Below are positions 19,744-38,719 of a DNA stretch of 41,714 bases, piece after piece. Source of the stretch: a plasmid; the NCBI RefSeq assembly GCF_055900595.2, contig NZ_JBVWEU010000004.1. One strand, written 5' to 3'. Positions within the stretch are counted from its first letter, which is position 1. Each line of letters opens with the position of its first letter. The notes below the pieces were generated by a model that saw only the letters and a program-made list of their open reading frames with translations, ran no database searches and was not told the DNA's origin. The translations under genes were made by a program, and so were the position numbers.

Positions 19744-22700
19744 ATGCCCGTTGACTTTCTGACCACTGAGCAGACTGAAAGCTATGGCAGATTCACCGGT
19801 GAACCGGATGAGCTTCAGCTGGCACGATATTTTCACCTTGATGAAGCAGACAAGGAATTTATCGGAAAAAGCAGAGGTGATCACAACCGTCTGGGCATTG
19901 CCCTGCAAATTGGATGTGTCCGTTTTCTGGGCACCTTCCTCACCGATATGAATCATATTCCTTCCGGCGTCCGGCATTTTACCGCCAGACAGCTCGGGAT
20001 TCGTGATATCACCGTTCTTGCAGAATACGGTCAGAGGGAAAATACCCGCCGTGAGCATGCAGCGCTGATACGTCAGCACTATCAGTATCGTGAATTTGCC
20101 TGGCCCTGGACATTTCGCCTTACCCGTCTTTTATATACCCGGAGCTGGATAAGCAACGAACGTCCTGGCCTGCTTTTCGATCTGGCGACAGGGTGGCTTA
20201 TGCAACATCGTATTATTCTCCCCGGAGCCACTACGCTGACCCGGTTGATTTCAGAGGTAAGGGAAAAGGCGACGTTGCGCCTGTGGAACAAACTGGCACT
20301 GATACCGTCAGCCGAACAGCGTTCACAGCTGGAGATGCTGCTGGGGCCAACTGATTGCAGCCGCCTGTCTTTACTGGAATCACTGAAAAAGGGCCCTGTG
20401 ACCATCAGTGGTCCGGCGTTTAATGAAGCAATTGAACGCTGGAAAACTCTGAACGATTTTGGCCTGCATGCTGAAAACCTGAGTACACTCCCGGCTGTGC
20501 GCCTGAAAAATCTCGCACGTTATGCTGGTATGACTTCGGTGTTCAATATTGCCAGGATGTCACCGCAGAAAAGGATGGCGGTTCTGGTTGCCTTTGTCCT
20601 TGCATGGGAAACGCTGGCGCTGGATGATGCATTGGACGTTCTGGACGCCATGCTGGCCGTTATCATCCGTGACGCCAGAAAGATTGGGCAGAAAAAACGG
20701 CTCCGCTCGCTGAAGGATCTGGATAAATCTGCATTGGCGCTCGCCAGCGCATGTTCGTACCTGCTGAAAGAAGAAACACCGGACGAATCGATTCGTGCTG
20801 AGGTGTTCAGCTACATCCCAAGGCAAAAGCTGGCTGAAATCATCACGCTTGTCCGTGAAATTGCCCGGCCCTCAGACGATAATTTTCATGAAGAAATGGT
20901 GGAGCAGTACGGGCGCGTTCGTCGTTTCCTGCCCCATCTGCTGAATACCGTTAAATTTTCATCCGCACCTGCCGGGGTTACCACTCTGAATGCCTGTGAC
21001 TACCTCAGCCGGGAGTTCAGCTCACGGCGGCAGTTTTTTGACGACGCACCAACGGAAATTATCAGTCGGTCATGGAAACGGCTGGTGATTAACAAGGAAA
21101 AACATATCACCCGCAGGGGATACACGCTCTGCTTTCTCAGTAAACTGCAGGATAGTCTGAGGCGGAGGGATGTCTACGTTACCGGCAGTAACCGGTGGGG
21201 AGATCCTCGTGCAAGATTACTACAGGGTGCTGACTGGCAGGCAAACCGGATTAAGGTTTATCGTTCTTTGGGGCACCCGACAGACCCGCAGGAAGCAATA
21301 AAATCTCTGGGTCATCAGCTTGATAGTCGTTACAGACAGGTTGCTGCACGTCTTTGCGAAAATGAGGCTGTCGAACTCGATGTTTCTGGCCCGAAGCCCC
21401 GGTTGACAATTTCTCCCCTCGCCAGTCTTGATGAGCCGGACAGTCTGAAACGACTGAGCAAAATGATCAGTGATCTACTCCCTCCGGTGGATTTAACGGA
21501 GTTGCTGCTCGAAATTAACGCCCATACCGGATTTGCTGATGAGTTTTTCCATGCTAGTGAAGCCAGTGCCAGAGTTGATGATCTGCCCGTCAGCATCAGC
21601 GCCGTGCTGATGGCTGAAGCCTGCAATATCGGTCTGGAACCACTGATCAGATCAAATGTTCCTGCACTGACCCGACACCGGCTGAACTGGACAAAAGCGA
21701 ACTATCTGCGGGCTGAAACTATCACCAGCGCTAATGCCAGACTGGTTGATTTTCAGGCAACGCTGCCACTGGCACAGATATGGGGTGGAGGAGAAGTGGC
21801 ATCTGCAGATGGAATGCGCTTTGTTACGCCAGTCAGAACAATCAATGCCGGACCGAACCGCAAATACTTTGGTAATAACAGAGGGATCACCTGGTACAAC
21901 TTTGTGTCCGATCAGTATTCCGGCTTTCATGGCATCGTTATACCGGGGACGCTGAGGGACTCTATCTTTGTGCTGGAAGGTCTTCTGGAACAGGAGACCG
22001 GGCTGAATCCAACCGAAATTATGACCGATACAGCAGGTGCCAGCGAACTTGTCTTTGGCCTTTTCTGGCTGCTGGGATACCAGTTTTCTCCACGCCTGGC
22101 TGATGCCGGTGCTTCGGTTTTCTGGCGAATGGACCATGATGCCGACTATGGCGTGCTGAATGATATTGCCAGAGGGCAATCAGATCCCCGAAAAATAGTC
22201 CTTCAGTGGGACGAAATGATCCGGACCGCTGGCTCCCTGAAGCTGGGCAAAGTACAGGTTTCAGTGCTGGTCCGTTCATTGCTGAAAAGTGAACGTCCTT
22301 CCGGACTGACTCAGGCAATCATTGAAGTGGGGCGCATCAACAAAACGCTGTATCTGCTTAATTATATTGATGATGAAGATTACCGCCGGCGCATTCTGAC
22401 CCAGCTTAATCGGGGAGAAAGTCGCCATGCCGTTGCCAGAGCCATCTGTCACGGTCAAAAAGGTGAGATAAGAAAACGATATACCGACGGTCAGGAAGAT
22501 CAACTGGGCACACTGGGGCTGGTCACTAACGCCGTCGTGTTATGGAACACTATTTATATGCAGGCAGCCCTGGATCATCTCCGGGCGCAGGGTGAAACAC
22601 TGAATGATGAAGATATCGCACGCCTCTCCCCGCTTTGCCACGGACATATCAATATGCTCGGCCATTATTCCTTCACGCTGGCAGAACTGGTGACCAAAGG

Positions 22701-22749
22701 ACATCTGAGACCATTAAAAGAGGCGTCAGAGGCAGAAAACGTTGCTTAA
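19744..22749 (+). CDS. tnpA: Tn3 transposase TnpA
   Basis: 1001 aa from [17 protein letters not shown]; the stop abuts the Tn3 inverted repeat. Confidence 0.95.
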
Positions 22750-22782
22750 CGTGAGTTTTCGTTCCACTGAGCGTCAGACCCC

Positions 22783-25424
22783 TTGTTCAGGCCGGCATGC
22801 ACGCGGCGGCGCAGTTCAACACTTTGCAGCCAGTCCAGGATGAACAGCGTGCGCTCGATCCGGCCCAGCTCGCGCAGGGCCACGGCCAGTCCGTTCTGGC
22901 GCGGGTAGCTGCCGAGCTTGCGCAGCATCAGCGAGGCGGTGACGGTGCCCTGCTTGATCGAGCTGGCCAGGCGCAGGATGTCGTCCCAGTGGGCACGCAC
23001 GTGCTTGATGTTCAGGGTGCCGCCGATCAGCGGGCGCAACGTCGGGTAGGCTTGCACGCCCTGCGGCACGTACAGTTTGGTTTCGCCGAGGTCGCGGATG
23101 CGCGGCGCGAAGCGGAAGCCTAGCAGGTGCATCAGGGCAAAGACGTGATCGGTGAAGCCGGCCGTGTCGGTGTAGTGCTCCTCGATCCGCAGGTCGGACT
23201 CGTGGTACAGCAGGCCGTCGAGCACATAGGTGGAATCGCGGACGCCGACATTCACCACGCGGGTGCTGAACGGCGCGTACTGGTCGGAGATATGGGTATA
23301 GAACAGCCGTCCCGGCTCGCTACCGTACTTCGGGTTGACGTGCCCGGTGCTCTCGCCCCGGCCACCCGCGCGGAAGCGCTGGCCATCGGAGGATGAGGTC
23401 GTGCCGTCGCCCCAGTGGGCGGCAAAGGCGTGGCGATACTGGTGGTTGACCAGCTCGGCCAAGGCCGCCGAATAGGTTTCGTCGCGGATGTGCCAGGCTT
23501 GCAGCCAGGACAGCTTGGCGTAGGTCAGGCCGGGGCTCGACTCGGCCATCTTGGTCAGCCCGAGGTTGATCGCATCACCGAGGATTGCGGACAGCAGCAA
23601 CGTCCTGTCTTTGGCCTCGGCCCCGTCCTTCAAGTGGGTGAAGTGGCGGCTGAAGCCCGTCCAGTCGTCCACGTCCATCAGCAGTTCGGTGATCTTGATG
23701 CGCGGCAGTAACTGGCTGGTTTGGTCGATCAGCGCCTGCGCCCGATCCGGCACCGCCGCATCCAGCGGGGTGATTTTCAGCCCTGACTCGGTGAGGATGG
23801 CATCGGGCAGCTCGTTGTCCTTGGCCAGGCGGGTGACGGTGGCCAACTGCTCGTCCAGCAGCTGCAAACGCTCTTCCAGGTACTGGTCGCTGTTCGGGTT
23901 GATCGCCAGGGGCAGGGCCTGCTCGCGCTTGAGTGCGGCGAACTTCTCGGCCGGCAGCAGGTAGTCGTCGAAGTCGCGGAACTGCCGCGAGCCCTTGACC
24001 CAGATGTCGCCGGAGCGCAGGGCGTTCTTCAGCTCGGACAGGGCGCAGATTTCGTAGAATTTCCGGTCGAGGCCTTCCGGGGTGATCACCAGCGGCTTCC
24101 AGCGCGGCTTGATGAAGGCCGTGGGTGCATCGGCCGGCACCTTGCGCAGGTTGTCGGCGTTCATCTCACGCAGGGTCTGCACGGCTGCCAGCACGCCTTG
24201 CGCGGCCGGCGCGGCGCGCAGTTCCAGCACCTCCAGCAAGGCCGGCGTGTAACGGCGCAGGGTGGCGAAGTTCTCGCCGACCAGGTGCAGGTGGTCGAAG
24301 CCTTCCGGCCGGGCCAGCAGCTCGGCCTCGCTGACGCTCTCGGTGAACTCGTCCCAGGGAATCACCGCCTCGATGGCGGCATAGGGGTCGCTGCCGCTTT
24401 CCTTCGCTTCCAGCAGCGCCTGGCCGATCCTGGAGTACAGGCGCACCTTGTCGTTGATCGCCTTGCCCTGCTTCTGGAACTGCTGCTGATGCTTGTGCTT
24501 CGCGCCGCTGAACAGCTTGACCAGGATGCGGTCATGCAGATCGACCAGCTCATCGATCACGGTCGCGGTGCTCTCCAGCACCACGGCGGCCAGGGTCGCG
24601 TAGCGGCGCTGCGGCTCGAACTTACCGAGGTCTTTGGGCGTCATCTGCCCACCCTCGCGGGCCAGCTTGAGCAGGCGGTTCTGGTGGATGTGCCGGCCCA
24701 GGCCTTCGGGCAAGTCCACCAACTGAAATGTCTTCAGCCGCTCGATGTGTTCCAGCATGTGCCGAGAGTTGGGTTTCAGCGGTGCCTGGCGCAGCCAGGT
24801 CAACCAGGTGATGCTGCTGCCGGCCTTGAGCTTCAACAGCTCGTCCAGCTTGGCCCGATGCGAGTCCGTGAGTGGTTCGACCAGGGCGCGGTAGACCCGC
24901 CGATTGGCTCGCGCAATGGCTTCCGAGCAGGCCCGGTCAATCACGCTCAGCGCCGGCAGGATGCGTCGTTTCTGCCGTAGGCTCTCCAGGGCCTGACCGG
25001 CCAGCAGCAAGCCTTTGTCGGTCTGCTGGGCCAGCTCGGTTAGCTCGCGCACCAGGGCGCGGAAGTCGGACAGGCCGAACGGGGCCAGTTGCAGGTAGGT
25101 GCGCAGTTCCTGGGCATGCTCGCGACGGGTCACGTCGCGCTCGCCGTACTTTGCCCAGCTCGCCGGCTCGGCCTGGACTTGCTTCGCCACCCACAGGATG
25201 ACCGGCTCGGGCAGCTCGCTGTCGGTTCCCAGCGCGTAACCGGGGTAGCGCAGCAGGCAGAGCTGCACGGCGAAGCCGAGGCGGTTGGCGTCGCCGCGTC
25301 GCTGGCGGATCAGCGACAGGTCGGAGTCGTTGAAGGTGTAGTAGCGGATCAGGTCATCCTGGCTTTCCGGCAGCGCAAGCAGGGTGTCCCGCTCCGTGGC
25401 CGAGAGGATCAAGCGACGCGGCAT
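22783..25424 (-). pseudogene. tnpA: Tn1721-type tnpA, 5' 2.6 kb, gene disrupted by the Tn3 insertion
   Basis: N-terminus [31 protein letters not shown] (Tn21-subgroup transposase); the frame runs into the Tn3 IR. Confidence 0.85.
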
Positions 25425-25427
25425 GTG

Positions 25428-25988
25428 TCAGTCGTCCGTGCGGAGGTACTGGTAGAGGGTTTCCCGGCTGATGTTGAACTCGCGGGCAAGCTGCGCCTTG
25501 GGCTCGCCGGCCGTCGCTCGCTGCCGCAGGGTAGCAGCCTGCTCATCGGACAGGGCTTTCTTGCGGCCCCGGTACGCGCCACGCTGCTTGGCCAAGGCGA
25601 TGCCCTCACGCTGCCGCTCGCGGATCAGGGCGCGCTCGAACTCAGCGAAGGCCCCCATCACCGACAGCATCAGGTTGGCCATCGGCGAGTCCTCGCCAGT
25701 GAACACCAGGCCCTCCTTCAGGAACTCGATGCGCACGCCGCGCTGAGTCAGCTTCTGTACCAAGCGACGCAGGTCATCGAGGTTGCGGGCCAGCCGATCC
25801 ATGCTGTGCACCACCACTGTATCGCCTTCGCGGACGAAGCTCAGCAGCGCTTCGAGCTGGGGGCGCTGGGTGTCCTTGCCCGATGCCTTGTCGGTGAACA
25901 CCTTGCTCACCTGGGTTTGTTCCAGCTGGCGTTCCGGGTTCTGGTCAAAGCTGCTGACCCGGACGTAGCCGATGCGGTGCCCCTGCAC
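25428..25988 (-). CDS. tnpR: Tn21/Tn1721-type resolvase TnpR
   Basis: 186 aa, MQGHRIGYVRVSSFDQNPERQ serine recombinase. Confidence 0.9.
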   Translation of the reverse strand: MQGHRIGYVRVSSFDQNPERQLEQTQVSKVFTDKASGKDTQRPQLEALLSFVREGDTVVVHSMDRLARNLDDLRRLVQKLTQRGVRIEFLKEGLVFTGEDSPMANLMLSVMGAFAEFERALIRERQREGIALAKQRGAYRGRKKALSDEQAATLRQRATAGEPKAQLAREFNISRETLYQYLRTDD

Positions 25989-26160
25989 GATGTCTCCTTG
26001 GTTGAAGGCGGCTTAAGTGCACTTTCTGTTCCGTTGTGCCTCAAAGCCCATTTCTGTCAGGCTGAAATCTATAACCTTCGCGGGCATGTGTCAAAAAATG
26101 GGAAAGCAGACTCTATTCTGACGAAGCGGCGCGGCCCTGCCTGACATCAAGTTAGGGTAT
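25989..26160. promoter_or_regulatory. Tn21-subgroup res site region
   Basis: Intergenic segment upstream of tnpR with TGTCAGG-type repeats; likely the junction between the Tn1721-like and Tn21-like segments. Confidence 0.5.
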
Positions 26161-26163
26161 GCC

Positions 26164-26514
26164 TCAACCTGACGGCGGCGAATCACAAGCGTCCGGTTTG
26201 ACGCTGGTTTCGGTCGCAGTGCTGGCCCGCGCCTGGAAGCGCTGATAGCACTCCAGCCCGCAGAAATGCTCCACGTACTCGGCCCCTTCCGGCGTGAAGG
26301 CGGCATCGAGCGGGATTTCCTTGCAGCACACGCAGCAACTGGTGCTCGGTTCATTGGCGTTCATGGTGGTGTTCCTCCATTGGTTGACGAAGCCGACGAA
26401 GGCCGCCGCCGGCATCGGCCTGGCGAACAGGAAACCCTGCACCGTGTCGCAACCCGCCTGCCGCAACCACGCAAGGCAGTCGGGTGTTTCCACACCCTCG
26501 GCTACCACCTCCAT
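26164..26514 (-). pseudogene. urf2/tnpM remnant (EAL-domain C-terminal fragment) truncated by the integron IRi
   Basis: Translation ...[30 protein letters not shown]... begins at the integron boundary. Confidence 0.5.
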
Positions 26515-26539
26515 TGTCGTTTTCAGAAGACGGCTGCAC
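26515..26539. repeat. Class 1 integron IRi (25 bp)
   Basis: TGTCGTTTTCAGAAGACGGCTGCAC. Confidence 0.8.
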
Positions 26540-26716
26540 TGAACGTCAGAAGCCGACTGCACTATAGCAGCGGAGGGGTTGGATCCATCAGGCAACGACG
26601 GGCTGCTGCCGGCCATCAGCGGACGCAGGGAGGACTTTCCGCAACCGGCCGTTCGATGCGGCACCGATGGCCTTCGCGCAGGGGTAGTGAATCCGCCAGG
26701 ATTGACTTGCGCTGCC

Positions 26717-27730
26717 CTACCTCTCACTAGTGAGGGGCGGCAGCGCATCAAGCGGTGAGCGCACTCCGGCACCGCCAACTTTCAGCACATGCGTGTAAAT
26801 CATCGTCGTAGAGACGTCGGAATGGCCGAGCAGATCCTGCACGGTTCGAATGTCGTAACCGCTGCGGAGCAAGGCCGTCGCGAACGAGTGGCGGAGGGTG
26901 TGCGGTGTGGCGGGCTTCGTGATGCCTGCTTGTTCTACGGCACGTTTGAAGGCGCGCTGAAAGGTCTGGTCATACATGTGATGGCGACGCACGACACCGC
27001 TCCGTGGATCGGTCGAATGCGTGTGCTGCGCAAAAACCCAGAACCACGGCCAGGAATGCCCGGCGCGCGGATACTTCCGCTCAAGGGCGTCGGGAAGCGC
27101 AACGCCGCTGCGGCCCTCGGCCTGGTCCTTCAGCCACCATGCCCGTGCACGCGACAGCTGCTCGCGCAGGCTGGGTGCCAAGCTCTCGGGTAACATCAAG
27201 GCCCGATCCTTGGAGCCCTTGCCCTCCCGCACGATGATCGTGCCGTGATCGAAATCCAGATCCTTGACCCGCAGTTGCAAACCCTCACTGATCCGCATGC
27301 CCGTTCCATACAGAAGCTGGGCGAACAAACGATGCTCGCCTTCCAGAAAACCGAGGATGCGAACCACTTCATCCGGGGTCAGCACCACCGGCAAGCGCCG
27401 CGACGGCCGAGGTCTTCCGATCTCCTGAAGCCAGGGCAGATCCGTGCACAGCACCTTGCCGTAGAAGAACAGCAAGGCCGCCAATGCCTGACGATGCGTG
27501 GAGACCGAAACCTTGCGCTCGTTCGCCAGCCAGGACAGAAATGCCTCGACTTCGCTGCTGCCCAAGGTTGCCGGGTGACGCACACCGTGGAAACGGATGA
27601 AGGCACGAACCCAGTTGACATAAGCCTGTTCGGTTCGTAAACTGTAATGCAAGTAGCGTATGCGCTCACGCAACTGGTCCAGAACCTTGACCGAACGCAG
27701 CGGTGGTAACGGCGCAGTGGCGGTTTTCAT
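26717..27730 (-). CDS. intI1: Class 1 integron integrase IntI1
   Basis: 337 aa full length; tyrosine recombinase motifs; Arg32/Asn39 variant. Confidence 0.95.
27615..27643 (+). promoter_or_regulatory. Integron cassette promoter Pc, strong variant (TTGACA-N17-TAAACT)
   Basis: -35 at 27615-27620 and -10 at 27638-27643, inside intI1 on the cassette strand. Confidence 0.7.
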
Positions 27731-27874
27731 GGCTTGTTATGACTGTTTTTTTGTACAGTCTATGCCTCGGGCATCCAAGCAGCAAGCGCGTTACGCCGTG
27801 GGTCGATGTTTGATGTTATGGAGCAGCAACGATGTTACGCAGCAGGGCAGACGCCCTAAAACAAAGTTAGCCAT

Positions 27875-28372
27875 ATGAACTCGGAATCAGTACGCATTTA
27901 TCTCGTTGCTGCGATGGGAGCCAATCGGGTTATTGGCAATGGTCCTAATATCCCCTGGAAAATTCCGGGTGAGCAGAAGATTTTTCGCAGACTCACTGAG
28001 GGAAAAGTCGTTGTCATGGGGCGAAAGACCTTTGAGTCTATCGGCAAGCCTCTACCGAACCGTCACACATTGGTAATCTCACGCCAAGCTAACTACCGCG
28101 CCACTGGCTGCGTAGTTGTTTCAACGCTGTCGCACGCTATCGCTTTGGCATCCGAACTCGGCAATGAACTCTACGTCGCGGGCGGAGCTGAGATATACAC
28201 TCTGGCACTACCTCACGCCCACGGCGTGTTTCTATCTGAGGTACATCAAACCTTCGAGGGTGACGCCTTCTTCCCAATGCTCAACGAAACAGAATTCGAG
28301 CTTGTCTCAACCGAAACCATTCAAGCTGTAATTCCGTACACCCACTCCGTTTATGCGCGTCGAAACGGCTAA
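27875..28372 (+). CDS. dfrA12: Trimethoprim-resistant dihydrofolate reductase, dfrA12-like
   Basis: 165 aa, MNSESVRIYLVAAMGANRVIGNGPNIPWKIPGEQ; first cassette after attI1. Confidence 0.9.
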   Translation: MNSESVRIYLVAAMGANRVIGNGPNIPWKIPGEQKIFRRLTEGKVVVMGRKTFESIGKPLPNRHTLVISRQANYRATGCVVVSTLSHAIALASELGNELYVAGGAEIYTLALPHAHGVFLSEVHQTFEGDAFFPMLNETEFELVSTETIQAVIPYTHSVYARRNG

Positions 28373-28470
28373 CCATTCCGTCAACGGGACGCCAAAATGC
28401 TGCGCATTTTGGTTCCCTCCGCTGCGCTCCGGCTCTCGTTACGTCCAACGTTAGCACCACTGAAACCCAG
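28373..28470 (+). other. attC recombination site of the dfrA12 cassette
   Basis: Imperfect inverted-repeat structure ending in GTTAGC-type core after the dfrA12 stop. Confidence 0.5.
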
Positions 28471-28483
28471 CTTTATTTAGCTC

Positions 28484-28774
28484 ATGTTTATTCAAACGGC
28501 ATTTAGCTTTTCAGGCGTTATTCAGTGCCTGTTTTGCCTTTTTTCCGGGCTTCGCCTGCATGGGCTGCGCAGGTTTTCAGTCTTTTTGGCCTCTAGCCCT
28601 TGCGTAGCAAGCGCAAGCAGCTATCGTTTTTGCAGTGCTGTGCCGCCTCGGTGGCGCAGCGTTTTTTCACGGTTAGCGCCCGTCGCCAAATTCAAGTTAT
28701 CCGTTTTGGCTTCTGGTTCTAACATTTCGGTCAAGCCGACCCGCATTCTGCGGTCGGCTTACCTCGCCCGTTAG
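28484..28774 (+). CDS. Cassette ORF of unknown function (orfF/gcuF)
   Basis: 96-aa ORF between dfrA12 and aadA, in the position of the known dfrA12-orfF-aadA2 array. Confidence 0.6.
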   Translation: MFIQTAFSFSGVIQCLFCLFSGLRLHGLRRFSVFLASSPCVASASSYRFCSAVPPRWRSVFSRLAPVAKFKLSVLASGSNISVKPTRILRSAYLAR

Positions 28775-28779
28775 ACATC

Positions 28780-29571
28780 ATGAGGGAAGCGGTGACCATC
28801 GAAATTTCGAACCAACTATCAGAGGTGCTAAGCGTCATTGAGCGCCATCTGGAATCAACGTTGCTGGCCGTGCATTTGTACGGCTCCGCAGTGGATGGCG
28901 GCCTGAAGCCATACAGCGATATTGATTTGTTGGTTACTGTGGCCGTAAAGCTTGATGAAACAACGCGGCGAGCTTTGATCAACGACCTTTTGGAAACTTC
29001 GGCTTCCCCTGGAGAGAGCGAGATTCTCCGCGCTGTAGAAGTCACCATTGTTGTGCACGACGACATCATTCCGTGGCGTTATCCAGCTAAGCGCGAACTG
29101 CAATTTGGAGAATGGCAGCGCAATGACATTCTTGCAGGTATCTTCGAGCCAGCCACGATCGACATTGATCTGGCTATCTTGCTGACAAAAGCAAGAGAAC
29201 ATAGCGTTGCCTTGGTAGGTCCAGCGGCGGAGGAACTCTTTGATCCGGTTCCTGAACAGGATCTATTTGAGGCGCTAAATGAAACCTTAACGCTATGGAA
29301 CTCGCCGCCCGACTGGGCTGGCGATGAGCGAAATGTAGTGCTTACGTTGTCCCGCATTTGGTACAGCGCAGTAACCGGCAAAATCGCGCCGAAGGATGTC
29401 GCTGCCGACTGGGCAATGGAGCGCCTGCCGGCCCAGTATCAGCCCGTCATACTTGAAGCTAGACAGGCTTATCTTGGACAAGAAGAAGATCGCTTGGCCT
29501 CCCGCGCAGATCAGTTGGAAGAATTTGTTCACTACGTGAAAGGCGAGATCACCAAGGTAGTCGGCAAATAA
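28780..29571 (+). CDS. aadA: Aminoglycoside (3'')(9) adenylyltransferase AadA, apparently mosaic (aadA2-like 5' end, aadA1-like remainder)
   Basis: 263 aa; residues about 1-65 (TIEISNQLSEVLSV...VAVKLDETTRR) resemble aadA2, the remaining about 200 aa match my recollection of aadA1 (RLASRADQLEEFVHYVKGEITKVVGK). Confidence 0.9.
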   Translation: MREAVTIEISNQLSEVLSVIERHLESTLLAVHLYGSAVDGGLKPYSDIDLLVTVAVKLDETTRRALINDLLETSASPGESEILRAVEVTIVVHDDIIPWRYPAKRELQFGEWQRNDILAGIFEPATIDIDLAILLTKAREHSVALVGPAAEELFDPVPEQDLFEALNETLTLWNSPPDWAGDERNVVLTLSRIWYSAVTGKIAPKDVAADWAMERLPAQYQPVILEARQAYLGQEEDRLASRADQLEEFVHYVKGEITKVVGK

Positions 29572-29632
29572 TGTCTAACAATTCGTTCAAGCCGACGCCG
29601 CTTCGCGGCGCGGCTTAACTCAAGCGTTAGAT
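29572..29632 (+). other. attC site, aadA1-type (60 bp)
   Basis: TCTAACAATTCGTTCAAGCCGACGCCGCTTCGCGGCGCGGCTTAACTCAAGCGTTAGAT. Confidence 0.6.
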
Positions 29633-29740
29633 GCCAGATTTGGCGTTGCGTATGCTCACAGAAAATCGACAGCCGCAAGACTGTTTTTGGCAACTCATAG
29701 CCACCACTATTTATCCTTCATACCGTAGAGGAGATTGCAC

Positions 29741-30073
29741 GTGAAGAACTGGCTCTTTCTGGCTATTGCAATATTTGGTGAGGTCGTCGCAACTTCCGCA
29801 CTGAAGTCCAGCCATGGATTCACCAAGTTAGTTCCTTCTGTTGTAGTTGTGGCTGGCTACGGGCTTGCGTTCTATTTCCTCTCTCTCGCACTCAAGTCCA
29901 TCCCGGTCGGCATTGCTTATGCTGTTTGGGCTGGCCTCGGCATCGTACTTGTGGCAGCTATCGCTTGGATCTTCCATGGCCAGAAACTAGACTTGTGGGC
30001 GTTCGTTGGCATGGGACTTATCGTTAGTGGCGTCGCCGTTCTAAATCTGCTATCCAAGGTCAGCGCACATTGA
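29741..30073 (+). CDS. qacH: SMR-family quaternary ammonium compound efflux protein (qacH/qacF-like cassette)
   Basis: 110 aa from a GTG start, four-TM SMR fold ([23 protein letters not shown]); not qacEdelta1. Confidence 0.8.
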
Positions 30074-30140
30074 TCGGGCTGGCATCTAACAGTTCATTCA
30101 AGCCGACGCCGCTTCGCGGCGCGGCTTAATTCAGGTGTTA
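30074..30140 (+). other. attC-like site after the qac cassette
   Basis: Sequence similar to the aadA attC (CAAGCCGACGCCGCTTCGCGGCGCGGCTTAA). Confidence 0.4.
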
Positions 30141-30319
30141 GTCGGACGCCTACGGCGCCGAGGAAAAAAGAAACCAAACCATTCTTGCTGCCAAAGAGAA
30201 AAACCCCTTACGGTGGCGTACTGGGAAAGTGCGTATCTACGACGCCTTGCCGGTCTCAATGTCATGCCGTCCTCTTTCGAAGGCTGCTTGATGCAAACCT
30301 CTCAAAAATCTGGCATAAA

Positions 30320-31006
30320 CTATCTTGACATATTCCGATTGAACACCTTCCGAATATCAGCGGCTATCAGCGGGATCTCATCTTTTTTCGTGACGTAGGA
30401 GTGGGCATTCTGCTGCAGATGAAACTGGCAGCGTTGCCACAGAATTCCAGGGAAGACAGCATCGATTGCCGCGCGCAGTCCTGAGTGGTCATCACTGGTG
30501 ATCATTCGCAGGCCGTGCATCCCTCGTCGTACGAGACCCTCGAGAAAGGAACGCCAGTTTACCTCTGCCTCACTGTTCGCGACTTCGGCGTCAAGAATAT
30601 GCCGATTCCCGCTGTAATCAACGCCAATAGCCACTAGAAGCGCCTGCTTGACCACATGGGAACCGACGCGAACCGATTCATAGGTCGCATCAAGTACCAA
30701 GTATTGAATCTGTCCGACAGGCTGCGCCTTCCAAGACGTAATCTCTTCATCGAGCTCCTTTGCCAGCCTGCTGACCTGGGACGAGCTGACTTCGGTGCCA
30801 CAAAGAATTTCGACGATATCCGAGACCCTGCGGGTACTTACTCCTTTGACATACATTTCGGCGATGGCGAGCTTGAGAGCACGCTCACTGCGCATGCCTT
30901 TCTCGATGCAGCTGGGATAAAACTCCATCCCGCGAACTTGTGGTACTTTCAAGAGGACTTTCCCGGTCGCAAGATTGAATATTGGATTATTTGGATTTAC
31001 CAACAA
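30320..31006 (-). pseudogene. Internal fragment of an IS256-family transposase (IS440-like element reported next to sul3)
   Basis: 228 aa aligning to the middle of IS256-family transposases (YPSCIEKGMRSERALKLAIAEMY...WQRCQFHLQQNA); both the N- and C-terminal parts are absent. Confidence 0.7.
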
Positions 31007-31250
31007 ACACTACTATTTAGCTACGAAAACTCAAGAGAAGTACACAAAACCTTTTGGAAGTGATGGAAGTTTAAGTCCTCTTGATTATAGTGTAGGTATT
31101 GGAACAGGTTTAGAATTAGGACATTTCCAGTTTATGTTTGGCTATGATTACCCTCTTAGTAACAGTTCGAAAGATCCAGACCTAAGTCAAGTACGCCAAC
31201 ACAACTTCAGAGCAAGTATAGCATATTCATTTAGAAAGCTAAAAAAATAA
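30975..31250 (+). pseudogene. Possible C-terminal fragment of an outer-membrane beta-barrel protein
   Basis: 91-aa ORF with alternating hydrophobic pattern in low-GC DNA; weak. Confidence 0.3.
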
Positions 31251-31252
31251 AA

Positions 31253-32044
31253 CTAACCAAGGGCTTTGGATATTTTCAAGGCATCTGATAAAGACTTAAC
31301 ATCATGGGTGCGGAGATAATCTGCACCTTTTTTGTATGCATACATTTCTGCTGCAAGAGTTGGTGCTAAACGAGATTTCACATCGGTTCCAGTTATTTTA
31401 CCTAAGAATGATTTCCGTGACACTGCAATCATTACTTGCAAATTAAAAGCTTCTTGAATTTCAGGGAAACGCTTCAAAACAAGAATAGATGTTTCTGGAT
31501 TAGAGCCTAAAAAGAAGCCCATACCCGGATCAAGAATAATTCGTTCACGCTTTACACCAGCCTCAACTAAAGCAGCAATTCTTTCTTTAAAAAATTCCAT
31601 CATGGAAGTAAAAACCTCTTCCGGATTCGTTTCAACTTTAGTAGCTGCACCAATTCGCTGAACGGAGTGCATCAACACAAGTTTGCAATCTGACTTTGCC
31701 AAGCCTGAATAAATCTCAGGATAAGGAAAACCTTGAATATCATTAATAAAATCAACCTTTTGTTCTATGCAAAAACTCTGAACCTCAGGTTTAAATGTAT
31801 CAACAGAAATAGAAATGCCTTTTTCTTTTAAAGCCTTAATGACAGGTTTGAGTCTTTTGATTTCTTCCACAACGCCCACTTCAGTTGTATCAGGATTACT
31901 GGAAGCGGCTCCCAAATCAATCACATCTGCTCCATCTTCAACCAAATGCAGAGCATGCTCAATTGCCTTATCTGTATCTAAATAAAGTCCTCCATCGGAA
32001 AAACTATCGGTGGTTATATTTACGATTCCAAAAATCTTGCTCAT
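31253..32044 (-). CDS. sul3: Sulfonamide-resistant dihydropteroate synthase Sul3
   Basis: 263 aa, MSKIFGIVNITTDSFSDGG; low-GC context. Confidence 0.9.
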   Translation of the reverse strand: MSKIFGIVNITTDSFSDGGLYLDTDKAIEHALHLVEDGADVIDLGAASSNPDTTEVGVVEEIKRLKPVIKALKEKGISISVDTFKPEVQSFCIEQKVDFINDIQGFPYPEIYSGLAKSDCKLVLMHSVQRIGAATKVETNPEEVFTSMMEFFKERIAALVEAGVKRERIILDPGMGFFLGSNPETSILVLKRFPEIQEAFNLQVMIAVSRKSFLGKITGTDVKSRLAPTLAAEMYAYKKGADYLRTHDVKSLSDALKISKALG

Positions 32045-32795
32045 ATCATTTTGCTTTGATTACAAAAGTAGCATTTATCTTAATTGACTAATTATCACTT
32101 ACGCAAATTGACACATTTTCCCTATCTTTGCAGCCTAATTTTTTTGTTTTAATTCATTATGAAAACTGATAGGAACTGTCATTTCGAGTTTTTCGCGGTT
32201 TTGGGTCAAAATTCGGTTTTTTCCCCGAACTACGACTGTTTTCGCACCCCGAACAACTAATCCAATCAGAATTTTCCGGCAACGCCGACTCCAAGAAGTG
32301 TAATTCCAGTCTATTTCTGCCGTCAACCCCTGATTCGCGTTAATGCGACAAAGCTCAAACACATAACTCCCCCACGAAGCCATATAAACTCCGATTTCGA
32401 GGTGTTATCCTGTTCCGCATAAACTTCGTTTTTGGGTATTATACCTACACCAAAGCAAGAAGATTATGGGTCCAAACTTCATTTGTATATTTTGCAAACA
32501 AATATCTGCCTGTCATATCTGTCGGAGTGTGGTGATACTCCTTTGCATTAAAAATGCGCTGATAAAAGGTAGTTCAGCAAAAGGCGAAACGCCAATAAAT
32601 ATATCTATAACCGGTTTCGCCCGTTGATTGGGTATCGCCGTGCTTCCGATATGTTCAATGGCTACGGCATGAGAACCGAAAAAATGGAGCAATTTTATTT
32701 TCTCTTCTTCAAAATTCTTTGTCTAATCCGGGTTATATTCCATAATTTCAATTTTCATGATAGTTTCGTCCTTGCCTCAAAAACCATGTTTGGTA

Positions 32796-33659
32796 TTATA
32801 CTCCATATCTCTCCGGTGCAGGAATAGCCTTTTCTGATGCACGGCTAACAGCTTCCCATTCTTCCCAGGTAGCCATCCGTGCTTTTAAGGTATCCATCGC
32901 CAAATCGTATACCATGCTGCCAAGGATAAGCCTCAAAGGCGGATTATTGCTGGCTACTAATTTCATAAGGGCTTCCGCTGCCAAGGAAGGATCACTATCG
33001 ACCGAATCTTCGGAATACTGTTTCGCCAGCTCATCGCGCAGTGTACCGTATGAATCTAATGGATTGCTGTAACTCATCGAAGTGTATAAATCTGTCCAAT
33101 ATCCTCCTGGTTCCACCATAGTGAGTTTCACTCCGAAATGTTCCGCTTCTTTTGCTAAGGCTTCACTCATTCCTTCCAGCGCAAATTTACTTGCACTGTA
33201 AATACCAGACATCGGACCCGAGATAATAGCGCCAATGCTTGTAATCTGTATGATATGTCCAGAACGCTGCGACCTCAAATAGGGCATCACTGCCTGACAA
33301 ACCCAAAGAGCTCCAAAAAAGTTTGTGTCCATTAGTTTCCGAGCATCGGATTCGTTTAGTTCTTCAATCATACCCATAGTCATGATACCCGCATTATTAA
33401 CAACAATATCAAGCCTACCGAAATGTTTAACTGCTGTTTCAACCGTAGAAAAAACAGCCTCCCTATCTGTAACATCGAGGTTTAATGGCAGTAAGCTCTC
33501 TTGATATGTTTCTTCTAGCTTCGCCAAATTATCGATAGTCCTTGCAACTGCAACAACTTTATCCCCGGCTTTCAAGGCGGCGCATGTAAAAGCATAGCCA
33601 AGCCCCTTGCTTGCTCCGGTAATAAACCATACTCTTTTATTTTCGCTATTAGGTATCAT
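32796..33659 (-). CDS. Short-chain dehydrogenase/reductase (SDR) family oxidoreductase
   Basis: 287 aa; TGASKGLG Rossmann motif and YSASK catalytic motif. Confidence 0.8.
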   Translation of the reverse strand: MIPNSENKRVWFITGASKGLGYAFTCAALKAGDKVVAVARTIDNLAKLEETYQESLLPLNLDVTDREAVFSTVETAVKHFGRLDIVVNNAGIMTMGMIEELNESDARKLMDTNFFGALWVCQAVMPYLRSQRSGHIIQITSIGAIISGPMSGIYSASKFALEGMSEALAKEAEHFGVKLTMVEPGGYWTDLYTSMSYSNPLDSYGTLRDELAKQYSEDSVDSDPSLAAEALMKLVASNNPPLRLILGSMVYDLAMDTLKARMATWEEWEAVSRASEKAIPAPERYGV

Positions 33660-33804
33660 AGATATTCTCCTTTAGGCTATTATAGAAAGATTATTATAAG
33701 CGAAATTAATACCGTTAAACGCCATGAGCCCGACAATTTTGAGCACTTTGTTTTGTACTCCCAGAAGCTCACCACTACAAATTATCATCAACCCGGTCCT
33801 TTTT

Positions 33805-34064
33805 TCAGTCCACTTGCGGTTTCATTGTTACTTTGTCATAGCGTCGTGTCAGAATGCGGCAGAGAACAGCGTTTACTATCAACGCAACACCAGACCAGAA
33901 AAACCATGTATTAACACCTATAACCTCAACAACCGGACCTGCAACAAGTAAGCCTATCGGCATAGAAAGAGTCATGGCGGTCATCAAAAGGGAAAACACC
34001 TTGCCCATCATTTCAGGGGCAATGCTTTCTTGAACATAAGCCATAACAGGAACATTCATAAATG
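33805..34064 (-). pseudogene. mef(B): C-terminal fragment of an MFS efflux transporter, probably truncated mef(B), cut by IS26
   Basis: About 85 codons of transmembrane C-terminus ending at the IS26 inverted repeat. Confidence 0.6.
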
Positions 34065-34884
34065 GGCACTGTTGCAAAGTTAGCGATGAGGCAGCCTTTT
34101 GTCTTATTCAAAGGCCTTACATTTCAAAAACTCTGCTTACCAGGCGCATTTCGCCCAGGGGATCACCATAATAAAATGCTGAGGCCTGGCCTTTGCGTAG
34201 TGCACGCATCACCTCAATACCTTTGATGGTGGCGTAAGCCGTCTTCATGGATTTAAATCCCAGCGTGGCGCCGATTATCCGTTTCAGTTTGCCATGATCG
34301 CATTCAATCACGTTGTTCCGGTACTTAATCTGTCGGTGTTCAACGTCAGACGGGCACCGGCCTTCGCGTTTGAGCAGAGCAAGCGCGCGACCATAGGCGG
34401 GCGCTTTATCCGTGTTGATGAATCGCGGGATCTGCCACTTCTTCACGTTGTTGAGGATTTTACCCAGAAACCGGTATGCAGCTTTGCTGTTACGACGGGA
34501 GGAGAGATAAAAATCGACAGTGCGGCCCCGGCTGTCGACGGCCCGGTACAGATACGCCCAGCGGCCATTGACCTTCACGTAGGTTTCATCCATGTGCCAC
34601 GGGCAAAGATCGGAAGGGTTACGCCAGTACCAGCGCAGCCGTTTTTCCATTTCAGGCGCATAACGCTGAACCCAGCGGTAAATCGTGGAGTGATCGACAT
34701 TCACTCCGCGTTCAGCCAGCATCTCCTGCAGCTCACGGTAACTGATGCCGTATTTGCAGTACCAGCGTACGGCCCACAGAATGATGTCACGCTGAAAATG
34801 CCGGCCTTTGAATGGGTTCATGTGCAGCTCCATCAGCAAAAGGGGATGATAAGTTTATCACCACCGACTATTTGCAACAGTGCC
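34065..34884 (-). mobile_element. IS26 (820 bp)
   Basis: 14-bp terminal inverted repeats GGCACTGTTGCAAA; no 8-bp target duplication. Confidence 0.95.
34117..34821 (-). CDS. tnpA: IS26 transposase Tnp26
   Basis: 234 aa from MNPFKGRHFQRDIILWAVRWYCKYGISYRE. Confidence 0.95.
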   Translation of the reverse strand: MNPFKGRHFQRDIILWAVRWYCKYGISYRELQEMLAERGVNVDHSTIYRWVQRYAPEMEKRLRWYWRNPSDLCPWHMDETYVKVNGRWAYLYRAVDSRGRTVDFYLSSRRNSKAAYRFLGKILNNVKKWQIPRFINTDKAPAYGRALALLKREGRCPSDVEHRQIKYRNNVIECDHGKLKRIIGATLGFKSMKTAYATIKGIEVMRALRKGQASAFYYGDPLGEMRLVSRVFEM

Positions 34885-35916
34885 ATAACGACTGCGTTTG
34901 CGAATGATCCTGTGCCCCAGAAAGATAAAGCCGTCATTAACATGGGTGATTTTAGTCTTATCCATGTTCAGCCTGAGTTTCAGACTGCCTTCGAGCACAC
35001 CCCGACACTCCTCCCTGATGGCTTCCGCCTGTGCTTTGGTGCCTTTGACGATGGGGACAAAATCATCGGCATAGCGGCAGTACGCCACCGCGGGTTTCCA
35101 CTGCCAGTTTTCTCTGACCGCCGTACTTCGGCCCCGTTGGATACTGTTATTCCAGTACCACCGATCTTTTCTGGCTTTCCCGCTCAGGTAGCGCTCATGC
35201 AGGTATTGATCGAACTCATTCAGCATGATGTTCGATAATAGCGGCGATATAACACCGCCCTGTGGCACACCTTCACTGGCCGCCCGAAAGAGACCGACAT
35301 CGATATGTCCCGCCTTGATGGTTTTCCACAGCAGAGTCATGAAACGTGCGTCACTGATCCTGCGGCGTACAGCCTTCATCAGCAGTCGATGATGTACGGT
35401 GTCGAAGTAACTGGACAGGTCGCCTTCAATCACCCAGCGTCCCCGGGTTTCACCGCAGTCTGTGAGCTGTAATTTCACCGTGCGGATCGCGTGGTGGACA
35501 CTGCGCTCAGGCCGGAAGCCATATGAGAGCGTATGAAAATCACTCTCCCATATCGGCTCCATCGCCATCAGCATGGCCCGCTGAACAATACGATCCCGCA
35601 ACGCGGGGATACCCAGTGGTCGCAGTTTGCCGTTGCTTTTAGGGATGTAAACCCGTCTGGCGGGCAAGGGCTGGTAGTGGCCTGAGAGTAATTCATCCCT
35701 GAGGATTTGCAGCTCAACAGCCAGTCTGGCCTGTAGCATTGTTTTGTTCACGCCATCAACGCCGGGGGTATGCGCCCCCTTTGATGAAAGCGTGATCCGC
35801 GCCGCTTCAGCCAGCCATTCTGGTTGTGTTATCAGACGCAGCAGCCGTTGAATCCGTAGGGACGGATCGGTGGCTGCCCATGTGGCAAGCTTGCGTTGCA
35901 TTTCGCTGATTATCAA
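34885..35916 (-). pseudogene. Group II intron reverse transcriptase/maturase, C-terminally truncated by IS26
   Basis: RT domains 0-7 with YADD motif (CRYADDFV); the frame runs into the IS26 end. Confidence 0.8.
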
Positions 35917-38146: not shown

Positions 38147-38719
38147 GGTTTTTCCTCATATGCTGAGTGTGCCAGGGAGTATTCCCGCATAGGTGAAGTA
38201 TATGCCTGCAAGCCCGGCTTGTATAGGTGTTACATATGCAGATGGTAGGTATATGCGTATGCTTTGCCTATGCAGATGCCCGGCATATGGATATGTTACA
38301 CCTATGTTGGTTTCTCACTTTTCCCGCTCAGATCCGAAAAAAGGCAGTTCCGGATCTGATTCAGCCCCGCCGGCGCGCAGCGGCCCGGAAACACAAGATG
38401 TAGCGGTGTTTCCAGCTGTCAGTGACCATATATGTTGTGTCCCTCCCCTGCCCCGTGACCGGCCGCTCACCACCCTGAAAGGGCGCTGTGGTTATTCCGT
38501 GTGCGTGGTACACTTCCGGAAACTGTGGAATAACATAAAAGTCGGATCCGGCCAGAGCGGCCGTCAGGTAATTTAATTACGTTGTTATATGGCTGCTTAT
38601 TATTTTAGTATGTGAAAATCACTCTAGTGAAAGTCACTGTCACGACAGAGTGGCACTCATCTGACGATGATTGAGGTGTGGTAAAATTGCACGGCTAACT
38701 ATTCAACTGAGGAAAGGAC

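Follow-up and report, generated by a model that had tools for sequence, protein, structure and literature searches.

A hybrid aadA2/aadA1 cassette in a sul3-type class 1 integron probably formed by deletion between direct aadA repeats

Class 1 integrons linked to sul3 usually carry the cassettes dfrA12-orfF-aadA2-cmlA1-aadA1-qacH, as the first-pass annotation of the DNA studied here had stated. This is indeed the dominant form in PLSDB and is called sul3 integron type I in PMC11047700, PMC6834847, and PMC6206278, which cite Antunes et al. 2007 for it. Hybrids of aadA2 and aadA1 located after dfrA12-orfF have been put down to homologous recombination since the description of aadA8b by Gestal, Stokes, Partridge & Hall (Gestal et al. 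2005, AAC 49:4771), according to PMC7591504, where that study is cited. Arrays of the form dfrA12-orfF-aadA2/1 have also been described in swine E. coli (PMC7591504). The formation of hybrid aadA2/aadA1 genes by cassette recombination is therefore an already described, ordinary phenomenon.

We analyzed a stretch of 41,714 nucleotides from a plasmid (contig NZ_JBVWEU010000004.1 of RefSeq assembly GCF_055900595.2), hereafter the window. According to the list of its open reading frames (ORFs), a sul3-type class 1 integron spans positions 26717-32044 (Table 1). The ORF of the integrase is intact, and core sites delimit four cassettes (dfrA12, orfF, aadA, and qacL) with the expected attC inverted repeats. 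The canonical order of type I is broken, since cmlA1 and one copy of aadA are missing, and the array is a derivative of it by a deletion of 2405 bp. The remaining aadA gene lies in a regular gene cassette, with cores of the form G|TTRRRY (G|TTAGAC at 28770/28771 and G|TTAGAT at 29626/29627) and an imperfect inverted-repeat attC at the 3' end (inverted repeat 29574-29631, arms at 29574-29594 and 29611-29631). The cassette (28771-29626) is 856 bp long, the same length as both parental cassettes. It has the orfF attC upstream, as found for aadA2, and the aadA1 attC and then qacL downstream, as found for aadA1.

Table 1. Features of the integron, in positions of the window.
Feature	Position	Strand	Evidence
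intI1, class 1 integron integrase	26717-27730	-	ORF; annotation in NZ_CP024144.1 and pLAO28
Pc promoter, PcS variant	within intI1; TTGACA ~27615-27620, N17, TAAACT ~27638-27643	+	Pc sequence comparison
dfrA12 cassette	27867-28450 (gene 27875-28372)	+	NCBIfam trim_DfrA12 385.1, cut-off 360; core sites G|TTAGCC, G|TTAGCA
orfF/gcuF cassette	28451-28770 (ORF 28484-28774, DUF1010)	+	PF06231; core sites; attC inverted repeat 28733-28760
Hybrid cassette, aadA2-derived 5' part	28771-28949, gene start 28780, codons 1-57	+	22/22 informative sites; identical to aadA2 of NZ_CP024144.1 and NZ_CP010149.1
Crossover interval, 12 bp common to both parents (CTTGATGAAACA)	28950-28961	+	between last aadA2-type and first aadA1-type site
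Hybrid cassette, aadA1-derived 3' part	28962-29626, codons 61-263, stop 29569-29571, attC 29572-29626	+	informative sites all aadA1-type, 0 private
qacH/qacL cassette	29627-30137 (gene 29741-30073)	+	NCBIfam QacL 227, cut-off 205; core sites; attC
IS440 (IS256-family) transposase remnant, sul3-type 3' region	30320-31006	-	ORF; IS256 family annotation in NZ_CP024144.1, pLAO28, NZ_CP010149.1
sul3	31253-32044	-	ORF; collinear gene is Sul3 at 100.0% identity in NZ_CP024144.1, pLAO28, NZ_CP010149.1; window identical to NZ_CP010149.1 across the gene

The first-pass annotation had proposed that the adenylyltransferase has an aadA2-like N-terminal stretch of 65 residues followed by an aadA1-like remainder with an aadA1-type attC. 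We took as parents the aadA2 and aadA1 genes of the canonical sul3 type I array on the E. coli plasmid NZ_CP024144.1 and compared them with the window in an ungapped alignment. This resulted in 96 informative sites, which extend over the gene and its attC to a few bases past the latter. The first 22 sites (28796-28949) are aadA2-type, the other 74 (28962-29640) are aadA1-type, and none has a private base, i.e., one matching neither parent. Two unbroken blocks of 22 and 74 labels would arise by chance with a probability of 2/C(96,22), or about 7e-22. As the two types follow each other without exception, there is a single crossover, placed by this alignment inside 28950-28961 (codons 57-61). In the attC (29572-29626), all seven sites separating the aadA1 attC from that of aadA2 are aadA1-like. 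The product agrees exactly with AadA2 over residues 1-66 and with AadA1 over residues 58-263; the last of the ten AadA2-diagnostic residues is K57 and the first AadA1-diagnostic one is I67. Both halves were thus assigned correctly, and the proposed boundary was right to within one or two residues. Like aadA8b, the gene has one intragenic parental switch, with flanks matching the respective parents.

A full-length match to a single allele had been named as the result that would speak against a mosaic. Formally, unnamed NCBI proteins (OYG81298.1 and others) are such matches, but they are the same mosaic and so do not contradict it. We rejected identity with any one named allele, since the closest of these are 4-6 informative sites away and are mosaics themselves. 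The parental genes are 89.6% identical, with longest blocks of identity of 51, 46, and 39 bp, and no indels separate them, which explains why the fusion is in frame.

The ORF (28780-29571, + strand) encodes an intact adenylyltransferase of 263 residues. It matches the AadA-family ANT(3'')-Ia equivalog model NF012157 of NCBIfam over residues 8-261 (507.8 bits, cut-off 375), and the solved AadA structure 7UY4 is collinear with it end to end (residues 6-262, E=3e-161). It comprises the nucleotidyltransferase N-terminal domain and the AadA C-terminal domain, and an identical protein is recorded with PF01909 (weak) and PF13427. The AadA1 allele model NF033126 scores 576.1, below its cut-off of 587, the protein having ten AadA2-type residues at its N-terminus. 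Of the 264 positions aligned with AadA2 (the 263 residues and the stop codon), only 239 agree, with all differences from residue 67 on. The hybrid product is predicted to keep conferring resistance to streptomycin and spectinomycin. As a weaker addition, the chimeric enzyme might have an altered substrate or expression profile.

The closest relative of the locus is plasmid A of E. coli D6 (NZ_CP010149.1), which carries the full dfrA12-orfF-aadA2-cmlA1-aadA1-qacL-IS440-sul3 array. This array is preceded by the same Tn21 tnpA/tnpR remnant and followed by the same sul3-orf1-truncated mef(B)-IS26-IncR backbone. Positions 22505-28961 show one mismatch to this plasmid (at 23076) and positions 28950-34270 show none. 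Hence, over around 11.8 kb, the two differ by one SNP and by exactly 2405 bp, the sole structural difference. This length is the sum of the aadA2 cassette (856 bp) and the cmlA1 cassette (1549 bp), i.e., the offset between the starts of the aadA2 and aadA1 cassettes, exactly as recombination between two direct, 89.6%-identical genes predicts. The deletion extends from about nt 171-182 of aadA2 to the equivalent position in aadA1. The window and NZ_CP010149.1 also have in common the PcS promoter (27616T, 27636C, 27641A), 27851A in attI1, 31259A, and 32724T. These markers are absent, where the positions are covered, from NZ_CP024144.1, pLAO28, NZ_AP027905.1, AP027478.1, NZ_MT559989.1, and NQBB01000045.1.

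Among the compared arrays, 27851A, 31259A, and 32724T were found in NZ_CP010149.1 only, and the other compared integrons have T at attI1 position 27851. As for Pc, the variant is PcW-TGN10 in NZ_CP024144.1, pLAO28, NZ_AP027905.1, AP027478.1, and NQBB01000045.1, and PcH1 in NZ_MT559989.1. Among the examined arrays, PcS is common only to the window, NZ_CP010149.1, and the integron of the Providencia plasmid pPROV073-1.

We consider it likely, with a probability of around 0.8, that the in-frame aadA2/aadA1 hybrid arose by homology-directed deletion between direct aadA repeats, from an ancestor like the NZ_CP010149.1 array in the same Tn21-remnant and IncR setting. The starting point would have been a sul3 type I class 1 integron with the order dfrA12-orfF-aadA2-cmlA1-aadA1-qacH/L-IS440-sul3. 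An exchange between its direct aadA cassettes, resolved within 28950-28961, would have removed all of the cmlA1 cassette together with the 3' 80% of aadA2, the aadA2 attC, and the initial ~170-180 nt of aadA1. It would have left a single cassette with the 5' end of aadA2 and the 3' end and attC of aadA1. Loss of just these parts by recombination of aadA2 with aadA1 had been suggested beforehand and is supported by the near-isogenic NZ_CP010149.1 and the size of the deletion. As an account of the origin of the array, the suggestion gains from the single-step relation to that plasmid; formation in the plasmid's own lineage is not proven, and the hybrid also occurs in other cassette contexts.

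The enzymatic route may have been RecA-type recombination or replication template switching, which cannot be told apart from the sequence, and the deletion may have been intramolecular or between sister copies. The 12 bp of identity at the junction is less than the usual minimal processing segment. For this reason, the apparent junction probably reflects the repair of a heteroduplex after initiation in the nearby 39-bp block of identity (28873-28911). In aadA25 and aadA22 as well as in the window, the junction lies in this block or just right of it, and initiation there, followed by variable heteroduplex repair, would fit the three clustered junctions.

The exact hybrid is present in other bacteria. 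The identical 263-residue protein is found in NCBI without an allele name among the entries listed: OYG81298.1 (Shigella boydii), and EKV7177640.1 and EKV7178016.1 (Acinetobacter baumannii). In the S. boydii contig NQBB01000045.1, where dfrA12-orfF-hybrid is followed by aac(3)-VIa-groES-groEL-ISCR, no base differs from the window over 27852-29634, so that the hybrid gene is 100% identical. The contig differs from the window in its next cassette, aac(3)-VIa, and in its Pc, which is PcW-TGN10 with the GGG insertion. But for one base (28787 A>T, E3V), the same hybrid is present in two Providencia plasmids, pPROV073-1 and its twin. In contrast to the window, the hybrid of pPROV073-1 lies at attI1, upstream of dfrA37; its promoter is PcS, as in the window. 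The hybrid thus acts like any ordinary mobile cassette and is not restricted to sul3 integrons. A 201-bp probe across the junction had 100% matches in PLSDB only in the two Providencia plasmids and no full-length 100% match in 5,426 complete E. coli genomes, and a 64-mer across the junction had no match in GTDB representative genomes or JGI metagenomes. With the junction missing from these E. coli, GTDB, and JGI collections, the sul3-context version is rare in the collections searched. In the literature searched, we found no description of this deletion in a sul3 integron, and dfrA12-orfF-aadA2/1 hybrids only in PMC7591504.

These occurrences are the basis of the main rival explanation, in which the hybrid formed elsewhere and was then imported by double crossover or gene conversion. 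It could have formed, for example, between a dfrA12-orfF-aadA2 integron and an aadA1- or aadA22-aac(3)-VIa array like that of NQBB01000045.1. Such an import would replace aadA2-cmlA1-aadA1(5') through a left exchange in the common 5'-CS/dfrA12/orfF/aadA2 5' region and a right one in the 3' part of aadA1. The S. boydii identity and the same junction in pPROV073-1 are in keeping with this. So is the argument that, under a uniform distribution of junctions, the chance of one 12-bp interval being hit three times independently is very small, roughly (12/790)^2; this favors a single origin of the allele. However, import would require a donor as well as two exchanges that both fall between the markers 27851A and 31259A, whereas one deletion from an array of the NZ_CP010149.1 type explains everything. 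Moreover, the clustering of the aadA25, aadA22, and window junctions near the 39-bp block makes recurrence less improbable than under uniformity, and the data agree just as well with a spread the other way, from this lineage to others. No informative SNP within 27852-29634 separates the two histories. Given the single-step relation to NZ_CP010149.1, deletion in this lineage is the more parsimonious, and we regard import as unlikely. Since the same junction is seen in the NQBB01000045.1 and pPROV073-1 contexts, the allele could still predate this plasmid. Either the hybrid arose once and spread, in one direction or the other, or crossovers took place repeatedly in this short interval. An extension of the latter, which we find doubtful, is that the region right of the 39-bp block is a preferred site of aadA2 x aadA1 resolution; the 28950-28961 hybrid would then be independent in at least three contexts (sul3/qacL, aac(3)-VIa, and attI1/dfrA37). 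If so, new aadA alleles would repeatedly originate in the sul3 type I array and later travel as ordinary cassettes.

Two further explanations concern the loss of cmlA1 itself. Its removal by IntI1 site-specific cassette excision might have been expected, as an intact intI1 is present and true IntI1-type losses from the same array exist: cmlA1 is absent both from AP027478.1, where the orfF attC is joined to a complete aadA1 cassette at G|TTAAAC, and from NZ_MT559989.1, where a complete aadA2 cassette is joined to qacL at G|TTAGAT. But the junction of the window is intragenic, 180 nt from the nearest core site, its 12-mer contains no GTT and no attC-like structure is found there, and the product is a chimeric gene, impossible by attC x attC recombination. 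As the junction lies inside the coding sequence, we rejected excision by IntI1, to which we give practically no weight, in favor of homologous recombination. The other explanation is an assembly artefact in which the two aadA copies were collapsed and cmlA1 skipped; repeats classically cause such collapse, and the copies lie 2.4 kb from each other in direct orientation. Here, though, the identity at the junction is limited to 12 bp, below usual k-mer sizes, and no block shared by the copies exceeds 51 bp. Independent records of Shigella and Providencia also contain this hybrid DNA (the latter with one base different), Acinetobacter entries contain the same protein, and the window maps onto NZ_CP010149.1 as a closed circle, with 41714 joined to 1. 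An artefact is thus very improbable. The precise excisions in AP027478.1 and NZ_MT559989.1 are natural controls for the intragenic junction of the window.

The window as a whole (1-41714) behaves as a complete circular plasmid of the IncR type, with the replication initiator gene from base 1 and with 41714 contiguous with 1 in NZ_CP010149.1. Besides the integron, it carries tet(A)/tetR (15216-17171), blaTEM, an IS5-family element, and parAB/umuCD-like backbone genes. IS26 (34117-34839, - strand) has CC at 34271-34272, where NZ_CP010149.1 has TT, and codon 184 of Tnp26, counted from the ORF start, is Gly in the window and Asn in NZ_CP010149.1. We take the latter to be the G184N variant "IS26-v1" and the IS26 of the window to be the standard form. 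Directly next to IS26, an ORF of 352 aa (34858-35916, - strand) for the reverse transcriptase/maturase of a group II intron scores 295.9 with TIGR04416, just under the cut-off of 300, and for this reason may be truncated or damaged. Within IncR backbone that is otherwise near-identical to NZ_CP010149.1, a stretch of ~300 bp (38358-38664), located immediately downstream of what is annotated as vapBC in that plasmid, shows ~95 mismatches and has the look of a recombination patch. The match of the Tn21-type tnpA (22746-25424, - strand, 892 aa) to the Tn3-family transposase model stops at position 867 of 954. The last 4 bp of this ORF are shared with the end of a convergent ORF for another Tn3-family transposase (19585-22749), and blaTEM (17980-18840) is nearby, which suggests truncation by a Tn2/Tn3-like insertion.

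The window adds to known hybrids an unusually clean pair of ancestor and derivative, together with NZ_CP010149.1, for a natural deletion between diverged direct repeats in a cassette array. Its practical value is mainly in annotation and epidemiology, and the current understanding of integrons is unchanged. Allele callers label the gene inconsistently: AMRFinder and RGI give aadA22 or aadA23 for near-identical copies, and other junction variants are annotated as aadA25, aadA8/aadA8b, aadA1, or aadA2. Rather than being independent genes, many of the numbered aadA alleles are recombinants of aadA2 and aadA1, as shown here for aadA22, aadA25, and the aadA8-like gene. For a sul3 integron with the present array, chloramphenicol resistance based on cmlA1 is no longer predicted and was presumably lost with the deleted segment.

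Most PLSDB matches to the array of the window have the full form and align as two overlapping pieces. Single-piece deletion forms account for 9 of at least 148 near-full-length matches, showing that deletion derivatives are recurrent but a minority. The deletion route itself recurs, as pLAO28 and NZ_AP027905.1, from which cmlA1 is likewise gone, have other intragenic junctions. The former, whose gene is called aadA25, has the same dfrA12-orfF-[hybrid]-qacL-IS440-sul3 array as the window. Like the hybrid studied here, aadA22, aadA23, and aadA25 combine an aadA2-type 5' end with an aadA1-type rest and the aadA1 attC. The switch is elsewhere, at 28873-28911 in aadA25 and at 28918-28929 in the free aadA22 cassette, compared with 28950-28961 in the window, and aadA22 differs also by T at 28787 (E3V). 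In the aadA8-like gene of NZ_AP027905.1, the crossover lies much further downstream, at 29320-29370. The aadA8b gene is likewise an aadA2 5'/aadA1 3' chimera downstream of dfrA12-orfF, explained by homologous recombination, and PMC7591504 attributes it to a dfrA12-orfF-aadA2 array recombining with an aadA1 cassette, whereas in the window the aadA1 partner would have been in cis, so that cmlA1 was deleted as well. With sul3 integron type I, finally, the window shares the 5'-CS, dfrA12, orfF, qacH/L, IS440, sul3, orf1, the truncated mef(B)-IS26, and the Tn21 tnpA/tnpR remnant; it differs in lacking the 2405 bp and in having, as does NZ_CP010149.1, PcS instead of PcW-TGN10.
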